Shown here: positions 1-1,877 of the stretch, piece by piece
How positions within the stretch are numbered: the stretch's first letter is position 1
How the letters are laid out: each line of letters opens with the position of its first letter
IMG/VR virus record: IMGVR_UViG_2585427761_000005
Direction: 5' to 3' (one strand)
Length of the DNA stretch: 4,530 nucleotides
DNA from: a virus
Taxonomy: Duplodnaviria; Heunggongvirae; Uroviricota; Caudoviricetes
Position numbers and translations under genes: made by a program
The notes under the pieces: model-generated
What the model saw: the letters and a program-made list of their open reading frames with translations, nothing else
Databases searched by the model: none
What the model was told of the DNA's origin: nothing

Positions 1-1211
1 ACCGCCGTTGTACTGTTCAGCGCATTCTGGGCGGCGCTTCTGGCAGCAATATTTCTGTTCAGGCGTTCCTGTGTGGCCGCCAGACGGGCCTCTGCAGCAA
101 TCTGCATCTCCGTCCCGCGGGCTGCCGCCACGGCCTGCTGAGCACGGTACACGGCTGCCCTTGCCCGCGCCGTGGCAATCTGCGTTCCCCTGAACTGTGC
201 TTCCGCCAGTGCAACTTCATTACGTGCAGCCGTCACAAGTCCTGCCGTGGCAGACATCGCTCCGGAGGCCATATTGCCAAAGTACCGGGCAACCCCGACG
301 GCAACCAGCGCGCCCACGGCTGTTGCCACATTATCAATCTGTCCGGCAACACCGTTCAGCATGCCGGAGAGCGTTTTTGTCACCCCGCTGGCCTCATTCG
401 CACCGCCCACCCAGGCCATAAAGGCGTTTTCCACCTTTGTGATACTACTGGAAACCGTTTCCGGCATGGCCGCATATTCATCACGTAATATCCCCAGCTG
501 GCTGATTAACGCGGGGACCACTTTATCCGCTGTCAGTTTTCCGTCATCCGCCATTGCCTTCAGATCTTTACGGGCCACGCCCATACCCGCAGCCAGTGCA
601 CGTACGATCCGGTCACCACTTTCATTGACCGAATTAAACTCCTCACCACGCAACACACCCTGCGCCAGCGCCTGACTGAACTGGGTGATCACCGAGCCCG
701 CCTCTGCCGTACTGGCACCGGAGATTTTCAGCCCCGTGGAAATGGCCTCCGTCACCTTCAGCACATCATCAGCACTGTAACCATATTCACGCATTGAGGC
801 TGCCGAGCGGGCAAACAGGGCCGCATTATCTGAAAATGCCGTGCCCGTCCGCTGGCTGATATCCATCAGCACTTTCTGTGATGACGAAAATTCATCGGAT
901 GACTGCGACGCCTGTTTCAGTCGGGCATTCACGGAACTCCATTCATCGGCCAGAGAAATCAGGTGTCCGGTGGCAAAGGCACCGGCAAACGCACCCGCCA
1001 TTCCGACAGCCGAAGCGCGGATTTCCGTCAACTGGCTGTGCAGCTCAGCCAGGGCGCGTCGCTGCTCCCGGGCGACTGCGGCAGCCTGACGCCCGCCATT
1101 CTGCAGGGTCCGGTAATATTCACTGCCCATACGGGAAGCCCGCTGGATCTCCGACTGGAATGACTGCGAATTTGCCGAAATTTTGATAATCAGTTCACGT
1201 AACGTCGCCAT
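1..1211 (-). CDS. Tail tape measure protein, N-terminal ~403 aa (partial; continues beyond window position 1)
   Basis: ATG at 1211-1209 preceded by GGAGAAAGG SD-like sequence. Hand translation of the minus strand gives MATLRELIIKISANSQSFQSEIQRASRMGSEYYRTLQNGGRQAA...SVNESGDRIVRALAAGMGV...KVENAFMAWVGGANEASGV..., an Ala/Gln-rich, predicted-helical sequence typical of tape measure N-termini, with no stop reached by position 1. It sits directly downstream of the G/GT chaperone pair as in lambda (V-G-T-H). Absent from the ORF track only because it has no stop in the window. Confidence 0.8.
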   Translation of the reverse strand, partial: MATLRELIIKISANSQSFQSEIQRASRMGSEYYRTLQNGGRQAAAVAREQRRALAELHSQLTEIRASAVGMAGAFAGAFATGHLISLADEWSSVNARLKQASQSSDEFSSSQKVLMDISQRTGTAFSDNAALFARSAASMREYGYSADDVLKVTEAISTGLKISGASTAEAGSVITQFSQALAQGVLRGEEFNSVNESGDRIVRALAAGMGVARKDLKAMADDGKLTADKVVPALISQLGILRDEYAAMPETVSSSITKVENAFMAWVGGANEASGVTKTLSGMLNGVAGQIDNVATAVGALVAVGVARYFGNMASGAMSATAGLVTAARNEVALAEAQFRGTQIATARARAAVYRAQQAVAAARGTEMQIAAEARLAATQERLNRNIAARSAAQNALNSTTA

Positions 1212-1227
1212 TCACCTTTCTCCGGGC

Positions 1228-1249
1228 AAAAAAAACCGCCACAGCGGTT
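1228..1249 (-). terminator. Terminator-like hairpin plus U-tract between the GT stop and the tape measure start (minus-strand orientation)
   Basis: Plus 1234-1249 reads AACCGCcacaGCGGTT: a 6-bp stem (4 GC pairs) with a 4-nt loop. On the minus strand it is followed by a run of eight T (complement of the A-run at plus 1228-1235, the last two overlapping the stem), then GCCCGGAGAAAGGTGA and the tape measure ATG at 1211. Confidence 0.45.
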
Positions 1250-1257
1250 CTCATCAT

Positions 1258-1572
1258 TCATGACAGTGCTGCAAAGCTCAGCGCGTCTTCCAGCGCCGCA
1301 AACGGATCCACCTCCGGCTTATCCTCATCCTCGCCCCAGCAGAGCATGGCGCCCTTCAGTGCAACATTCATCCCCTGTGCCCCAAAAACCGCTTTCACGA
1401 TCTGTGCATTACGGATATCCCCGCGCTCATCACCCAGCGGGGATACCCTGTCGAACTCCATCCACATCATCGCCTCGCTCGCACTCAGGCTGTGCCGCAG
1501 TTCGGATAAGGTGCGCCCCAGACGGAGCGCAAGTCGCATCAGAAAGCGAATTTCCGGGCGGGCTACTTTTTT
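1258..1572 (-). CDS. T-like -1 frame extension of the tail assembly chaperone (GT fusion made by programmed -1 frameshift from the G frame)
   Basis: The -1 frame relative to G is open from the slippery heptamer A AAA AAG (minus strand, plus coordinates 1566-1572) to the TGA at 1258-1260, with no in-frame stop. The track ORF 1258..1539 is the part after the first internal ATG. Its position between the major tail gene and the tape measure gene matches the conserved G/GT arrangement of long-tailed phages. Confidence 0.7.
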   Translation of the reverse strand, partial: KKVARPEIRFLMRLALRLGRTLSELRHSLSASEAMMWMEFDRVSPLGDERGDIRNAQIVKAVFGAQGMNVALKGAMLCWGEDEDKPEVDPFAALEDALSFAALS

Positions 1573-1877
1573 CTGGCCGACTCTGCATCAGCGATCAGTT
1601 CCAGTGCCTGACGCAGCAACCGGGCATGTACCGGACCATAGACGGCCAGCACCTGCTCACGGTCGTCCGGAGCGAACACCCGCTGCAGATCAGTATCACA
1701 CAGGACATCGCAGAACAGCGTCACATCCGCTTCCAGGTTACGGCGGGTTTTCGCCACCACCGACAGGGTATCGTCATCCTCTCCATCACCATTGAGCACT
1801 TCCTGCCACAGATACCAGGCCTCTGCCGAAGGCTCCCGCAGCACCACGCTGACATTACCCCATTCCGGCACCTTCAC
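1563..1877 (-). CDS. Tail assembly chaperone (lambda gpG-like); start uncertain, GTG at 1877 or a non-canonical start further upstream
   Basis: 104-aa ORF (MKVPEWGNVSVVLREPSAEAWYLWQEVLNGDGEDDD...) immediately downstream of the major tail gene, acidic, ending ...AESARKK with the A AAA AAG heptamer directly before its TAG stop. The codon at 1877-1875 is GTG, not ATG. The same frame stays open upstream to a TAG at 1959-1961 and contains no ATG, so the true start may be ATT (1937-1935) or ATA (1946-1944). Confidence 0.7.
   Translation of the reverse strand: MKVPEWGNVSVVLREPSAEAWYLWQEVLNGDGEDDDTLSVVAKTRRNLEADVTLFCDVLCDTDLQRVFAPDDREQVLAVYGPVHARLLRQALELIADAESARKK
1566..1572 (-). promoter_or_regulatory. 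-1 programmed ribosomal frameshift slippery heptamer A AAA AAG (G to GT)
   Basis: Minus-strand A|AAA|AAG in the G zero frame (plus 1566-1572 = cttttttt complement), immediately followed by the G stop TAG (1565-1563). The -1 frame is open for ~105 further codons to 1258. Confidence 0.7.

Follow-up and report, generated by a model that had tools for sequence, protein, structure and literature searches.

The question raised by this locus is whether ribosomes translating a small tail gene of an E. coli prophage all stop where that gene ends, or whether some of them slip back by one base and carry on into the reading frame that follows. The window, by which is meant the whole 4,530-nt stretch of DNA that was analysed (IMG/VR record IMGVR_UViG_2585427761_000005), carries on its minus strand a lambdoid E. 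coli prophage's genes for joining head to tail and for the tail itself. Among them is a gene, G, whose last codons form a slippery heptamer, followed in the -1 frame by a long open stretch, T. As argued below, the arrangement very probably encodes a programmed -1 ribosomal frameshift of the lambda/HK97-type G/GT tail assembly chaperone pair.

The prophage in question is of the lambdoid, Stx/Sp9-like kind, and the locus falls in its tail module. At 97-98% identity, the window matches BP-4795, many Stx1a-, Stx2a- and Stx2c-converting phages, and O157:H7 prophages; of 5426 complete E. coli genomes, 1277 gave a match, and the best whole-window match is 98%. Its minus-strand genes run from a head-tail connector (4187-3861) through head closure (3851-3501), HK97-gp10-like (3504-3058) and tail terminator (3061-2717) genes to the major tail subunit gene (2658-1966), which encodes a C-terminal Ig-like domain and was recognised by alignment to relatives and by the Pfam models Ig_3, Ig_2, Phage_TTP_11 and Phage_tail_2. 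Next come G (1937-1563; 124 codons plus TAG) and the T segment (1566-1258; 102 codons in the -1 frame plus the TGA at 1260-1258), the putative C-terminal extension of GT. The last gene is that for the tape measure protein, of which the 5′ part (1211-1) is present before it runs off the window, identified by PF20155 (TMP_3, 2.9e-58) and by relatives' annotations. The order major tail, G, T in the -1 frame, tape measure is the one in which a G/GT frameshift is expected.

Differences from the closest relatives are concentrated at window positions 750-1300 and 1750-2250, the variable parts being the 5′ part of the tape measure gene, the T-to-tape-measure spacer and the Ig-like domain of the major tail gene; the head-tail joining genes are nearly invariant among the same relatives. 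Mosaicism of this kind is typical of lambdoid prophages. Two terminator-like hairpins with T runs were also seen on the minus strand, one before the major tail gene (2679-2697; called by a terminator scan) and one between T and the tape measure gene (1228-1248; found by eye and not called by the scan), and HK97 has annotated putative terminators at comparable positions. Searching Rfam gave nothing at the frameshift site and sub-threshold matches only (isrK, isrD and Trp leader) at these two hairpins, with the weak isrK match appearing at both.

Read on the minus strand, G ends in the codons GCC (1577-1575), AGA (1574-1572), AAA (1571-1569), AAG (1568-1566) and TAG (1565-1563). Just as the sequence-only reading had it, the heptamer A_AAA_AAG (1572-1566) takes up the last two sense codons in X_XXY_YYZ, zero-frame register, and the G stop TAG (1565-1563), a possible A-site pause element, stands directly 3′ of it. 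The first codon after a -1 slip would be GTA (1566-1564), from which the -1 frame continues as VARPEIRFLMRLALRLGRTLSELRH and remains open for 102 codons, a little short of the ~105 first estimated, to the TGA at 1260-1258. This TGA lies 46 nt ahead of the tape measure ATG (1211-1209), and GT would thus end just before that gene, also as foreseen. The left boundary of G, by contrast, had been misplaced at a GTG at 1877; the homologous start is at 1937-1935, giving a gene of 124 codons, 20 codons longer.

Upstream, the -1 frame is closed by a TGA at 1590-1588, and a productive shift is therefore confined to the 22 nt between that codon and the zero-frame TAG (1587-1566, minus strand), the sole stretch where slipping back by one base yields a long product. 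The heptamer falls inside it, so that a slippery sequence stands in zero-frame register within the overlap. The string AAAAAAG occurs once in the whole window, counting both strands, where 0.37 occurrences are expected, and at least once in 63 of 200 shuffles; by itself, therefore, the motif is unremarkable. Its position and reading register, and most of all the way homologues retain it, go beyond chance. An argument from rarity of the AGA codon was dropped, as neither AGA nor AGG is rare in the tail module.

Both halves of the putative fusion belong to established families. G matches Pfam PF06222 (Phage_TAC_1; 5.5e-61) and PHROG 344, annotated as tail assembly chaperone, and aligns with its counterparts in BP-4795, Lys8385Vzw and WGPS2. 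The translated -1 ORF matches PF06223 (Phage_tail_T; 2.6e-17), the family of lambda T, and PHROG 337. In addition to these separate PHROG families, both halves match a single 224-position family, phrog_14766 (positions 2-122 and 125-221), and fused GT proteins are therefore already present among phage annotations. No NCBIfam model matched G or T, and BLASTP of the window's G and T against lambda G and T gave no significant match; T is linked to lambda T by the Pfam profile and by residues that match in position beyond the junction.

On the proposed mechanism, the majority of ribosomes translating G would stop at the TAG (1565-1563) and release G (124 aa), and a small fraction would shift one base back on A_AAA_AAG. 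By one route both lysyl-tRNAs would slip, from AAA to AAA in the P site and from AAG to AAA in the A site; by another, a single P-site tRNA-Lys would slip on A_AAG with the stop codon waiting in the A site, and the protein made by either route would be identical. The shifted ribosome would continue with GTA GCC CGC and onwards, appending the 102-residue T domain to give a GT protein of 226 aa with the predicted junction peptide ...SARKKVARPEIR. If lambda is a guide, the tape measure protein would be coated by G together with the G portion of GT, the T domain would recruit the major tail subunit, and slippage efficiency would set a fixed, low GT:G ratio, with neither protein retained in the final virion. 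The anatomy of the sequence, its homology and its conservation are observed directly; from them we infer that slippage occurs here and at what efficiency, and the roles of the two proteins are assigned provisionally through their homologues.

How much of either protein this particular copy would make depends on two lesions close to the slip cassette. The start codon of G (1937-1935) is ATT, where 27 of 27 fetched relatives with the same start-codon context have ATG, and neither IMG/VR nor the complete E. coli genomes yielded the exact ATT variant. The major tail gene, for its part, lacks one nucleotide, a C, between 1999 and 1998, which is present in all 29 fetched relatives with this sequence context. 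Its loss moves the stop from the ancestral TAA (1945-1943) to a TGA (1968-1966) and shifts the frame of the final ~20 Ig-like-domain codons, which now end in RRVLRLLRVP and a stop in place of the SVTSVACTVTVSGAGG and stop of the undeleted frame of the window. A second programmed frameshift at this point was considered and rejected, there being no slippery sequence and all relatives being in frame; the deletion is likely a mutation or a sequencing error. With ATT as the start, a strong drop in synthesis of G and GT would be expected; that start and the frameshifted major tail gene upstream probably mean that this copy makes less of both proteins.

It is conceivable, though on the doubtful side of even, that in this genome the intact cassette is a relic in a defective prophage tail module, yielding little or no functional G or GT. 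Both lesions fit such a relic, as do the absence of the exact ATT variant from IMG/VR and complete E. coli genomes and the frequency of pseudogenes in related prophages, a frameshifted portal gene being one example. Against this, the remaining ORFs of the window all keep the lengths seen in relatives, and the ATT and the missing C could both be sequencing errors. Moreover, ATT can initiate translation at a low level in E. coli, as it does in infC, and lambda gpV can dispense with its C-terminal Ig-like domain. Whether the two changes may be real prophage decay or errors of sequencing, the slip cassette itself is intact, and a relic in this one genome is compatible with the frameshift as a mechanism of the family. 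The two lesions are in any case useful markers for judging whether the prophage can still build tails.

For the family as a whole, the programmed frameshift was examined in more divergent loci. A scan with the G alignment, restricted to a single genome for each species, gave 53 loci from distinct species with 44-64% G identity, drawn from Enterobacter, Kosakonia, Morganella, Pectobacterium, Xenorhabdus, Serratia, Proteus, Providencia, Pantoea, Klebsiella and other Enterobacterales. An overlapping ORF of 92-103 codons comes next in the -1 frame in 51 of the 53, and every one of these 51 has, inside the overlap, a zero-frame AAG preceded by A. The heptamer A_AAA_AAG is present in register in 32 of the 51, abutting the stop in 25 and with the stop 12-24 nt further on in 7; five more carry G_GGA_AAG, the heptamer of lambda, which brings the loci with either canonical heptamer to 37, and the P-site codon ahead of AAG is GCA, GAA or GTA in the other 14. 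AAG makes up only 31% of the Lys codons elsewhere in the same genes, whereas the junction codon is always AAG, and a constraint at the nucleotide level therefore acts on it. Conceptual GT fusions align across the junction without gaps, and the residues V+1, P+4 and F+8, which lie between the slip site and an internal Met, are conserved among homologues. Taken together, these comparisons favour ribosomes entering T from G over a separate start for T.

The same loci bear on which part of the slip site matters most. The stop directly abuts the junction AAG in 36 of the 51 divergent loci, and it does so in all 11 in which the P-site codon is non-slippery (GCA, GTA or A_GAA). In this heptamer-less set (L008, L021, L024, L025, L031, L032, L039, L042, L052, L054 and L057, from Klebsiella, Raoultella, Pantoea, Erwinia and others), GCA_AAG, GTA_AAG or GAA_AAG is followed by TAA, the G stop region mostly lies at ~2860-2895 of the locus, and the -1 T ORF is intact. 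Relatives of this kind suggest slippage of a single tRNA on A_AAG beside the stop. A more general proposal, tentative and rather unlikely as it stands, is that the core signal in this chaperone family is not the heptamer but the A_AAG tetramer with a stop directly 3′ of it, acting largely through a single P-site tRNA-Lys slip as the A site awaits a release factor; the counts of abutting stops given above and the lack of a conserved structure are its basis. If this were so, the GT:G ratio would depend on termination efficiency (RF1 at UAG, RF1/RF2 at UAA) and not on RNA structure. An abutting stop, which the sequence-only reading had suspected of promoting slippage through pausing, may help by leaving the A site empty, which is consistent with the pattern across the family.

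The sequence-only reading had called the heptamer dnaX-type and had proposed folding the downstream RNA in search of a stimulatory hairpin or pseudoknot. The likeness holds for the heptamer, which is identical, but not for the stimulators: no SD-like element stands ~10 nt upstream, the sequence ahead of the heptamer (GCTGATGCAGAGTCGGCCAG) containing no GGAG, GAGG or AGGA, and no stable hairpin lies 5-9 nt downstream. Nor did a wider downstream structure appear, with folds of 50 and 80 nt no better than those of shuffles (z -0.42 and -1.65, respectively) and RNAalifold predicting no pairs over 34 homologues. Further along, at 1531-1512 on the minus strand and 34 nt downstream of the slip site, an 8-bp, G+C-rich hairpin can be drawn (UGCGCUCC GUCU GGGGCGCA); it sits where the codons spell ALRLGR, the best conserved motif of T, and its nucleotide sequence is widely conserved. 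As a stimulator it was rejected on account of its distance, 71% pairing, at most one compensatory change and no convincing covariation.

These observations agree with those of Sharma et al. (2014; PMC4066793) for the catalogued cluster to which this frameshift belongs (see below), where the SD is recorded as 'N', the delta-delta-G in Table S8 is 0.020 +/- 0.023, and no hairpin is more stable than background. In the same authors' E. coli reporters, bare A_AAA_AAG gave 0.29% and bare G_GGA_AAG 0.28%, and the two heptamers were similar with either stimulator as well (PMC4066793). The G_GGA_AAG of lambda reaches a few per cent in its own context. With no RNA stimulator apparent, the level of frameshifting here is therefore probably low and lambda-like.

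Database records tell a different story from that of a fusion, in that a separate 93-aa 'phage tail assembly protein T' is annotated in BP-4795, WGPS2 and RefSeq PGAP records. Its start is the internal ATG at 1539-1537 (minus strand), nine codons past the slip site, which GenBank and RefSeq annotations use as the T start, and the Met is conserved in most homologues. If these annotations were right, T would be an independent gene translated from its own ATG and the heptamer would be incidental, which we consider very improbable. The ATG has no SD-like sequence upstream (context CCGGAAATTCGCTTTCTGATG), and Met is replaced by Leu in four loci (L023, L030, L049 and L056), in which the first ATG comes 25-32 codons into conserved T sequence. 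V+1, P+4 and F+8 are conserved in the -1 frame ahead of the Met even though they would be 'intergenic' under a separate gene. Neither the -1 frame relation in 51 of 53 loci nor a junction codon that is always A_AAG is in keeping with independent genes, and the homologues in HK97 and lambda are annotated or established as frameshift fusions. The separate G and 'T' records are probably an annotation shortfall and not evidence for two genes, and herein lies the value of the case for annotation: Stx and O157 prophage records, including those of RefSeq PGAP, list G and a truncated 'T' separately, and public records should carry the joined GT product.

Least probable of all is transcriptional slippage, in which RNA polymerase would add one A in the A6 run to make an mRNA for an identical GT: the extra A would indeed give AGA AAA AAA GTA and the same ...RKKV... 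product, so that protein data alone cannot separate the mechanisms, and rare in-frame G-T fusion proteins in databases (P0004) fit A-run length changes or read errors, but the frame relation is kept with G_GGA_AAG, GCA_AAG, GTA_AAG and GAA_AAG, where A runs are just 3-4 long, the junction is strictly AAG and not AAA, which fits re-pairing of tRNA-Lys and not merely a longer A run, the same heptamer works by ribosomal slippage in E. coli dnaX and IS911, and appreciable slippage of the E. coli polymerase requires longer runs (PMC5009743). The database proteins in question, P0001 and P0004, are rare, single-contig, in-frame G-T fusions, one with a 13-nt deletion that removes VARP and the other resembling a change in A-run length; they may be read errors or natural fusions.

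A programmed ribosomal frameshift between G and T is thus the preferred reading, and the central proposal of the sequence-only reading, that the pair are G/GT chaperones, is upheld by gene order, by the Pfam matches of G and T, by the -1 ORF and A_AAG in 51 of 53 loci and by gapless GT fusions, as well as by the position of the junction in lambda, the annotated -1 frameshift of HK97 and the place of ECs1801 in a cluster marked as true. Among the caveats that had escaped it are the ATT start of G, the frameshifted major tail gene upstream and the fact that the case was already in the literature.

Among known systems, the gamma/tau frameshift of E. coli dnaX uses the identical heptamer, A_AAA_AAG, decoded by the single tRNA-Lys of E. 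coli. It differs in having an upstream SD-like element and a hairpin ~6 nt downstream, with which it reaches ~50% efficiency, and in yielding a shortened product; in the window neither stimulator is present, low efficiency is expected and the product would be extended.

HK97 gp13/gp14 is a much closer parallel, with ~60% identity over G and T, the same position between the major tail subunit and tape measure genes, the same -1 frame relation and a joined CDS annotated as 'translated due to a -1 frameshift'. It differs in that a moron gene separates T from the tape measure gene, and in its slip region, where CGG_GAA_AAG is followed by TCT CAA CCC CCG GCG before the TAA, the stop thus lying 15 nt on, whereas the A_AAA_AAG of the window abuts its stop. 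This same stretch, at 1255-1290 in the HK97 locus (L140), recurs in its closest relatives (L005, L006, L007 and L017). The group has a G_GGA_AAG-like string out of canonical register (G_GAA_AAG) and a second candidate, CCC_CCG, just before the stop, and either of the two may be the slip site in use.

The conservation of the G/GT frameshift across long-tailed phages was reportedly established by Xu, Hendrix and Duda in 2004. Lambda, whose heptamer G_GGA_AAG is shared by five of the window's relatives, has a G from another chaperone family, with no BLASTP similarity to the G of the window and in a different Pfam family; the lambda G stop is 15 nt downstream of the heptamer, and T has 144 residues compared with 102 here. 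The T domains of both, however, fall in Pfam PF06223 (for lambda G/GT, see Levin et al. 1993; Xu et al. 2004, 2013, 2014), and the junction has the same position relative to T. With a slash at the junction, lambda reads ...SAGK/VFDGELSFALKLAREMGR and the window ...SARKK/VARPEIRFLMRLALRLGR, so that VFDGELSF in the one is set against VARPEIRF in the other and V, E, F, LA and GR match in the pattern K/V...E..F...LA...GR. The functional logic would likewise be shared, as judged by homology, with G binding the tape measure protein and T the major tail protein. In lambda itself, gpG and the corresponding portion of gpGT attach to the tape measure protein and the T domain to the major tail subunit; assembly depends on the gpG:gpGT ratio, which is ~30:1, and the virion contains neither protein (reviewed in PMC5009743).

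Finally, the frameshift at this locus is already known, a textbook case within a catalogued cluster, and it leaves the understanding of frameshifting and of tail assembly unchanged. Sharma et al. (2014; PMC4066793, Tables S4 and S7) list the cluster A_AAA_AAG_25, with 53 genes and ECs1801 as its representative, describe it as 'tail assembly chaperone; [true]' and equate it with GeneTack programmed-frameshift cluster 10. The genes in question, ECs1801/ECs1802 of the Sakai prophage Sp9, are the nearest of the known systems compared here. The window departs from them by ATT instead of ATG at the G start, by two amino-acid changes in G and by the 1-nt deletion in the major tail gene; G is nonetheless 98% identical, and nothing differs in the slip region (AGTCGGCCAGAAAAAAGTAGCCCGCCCGG), in the T sequence or in gene order.
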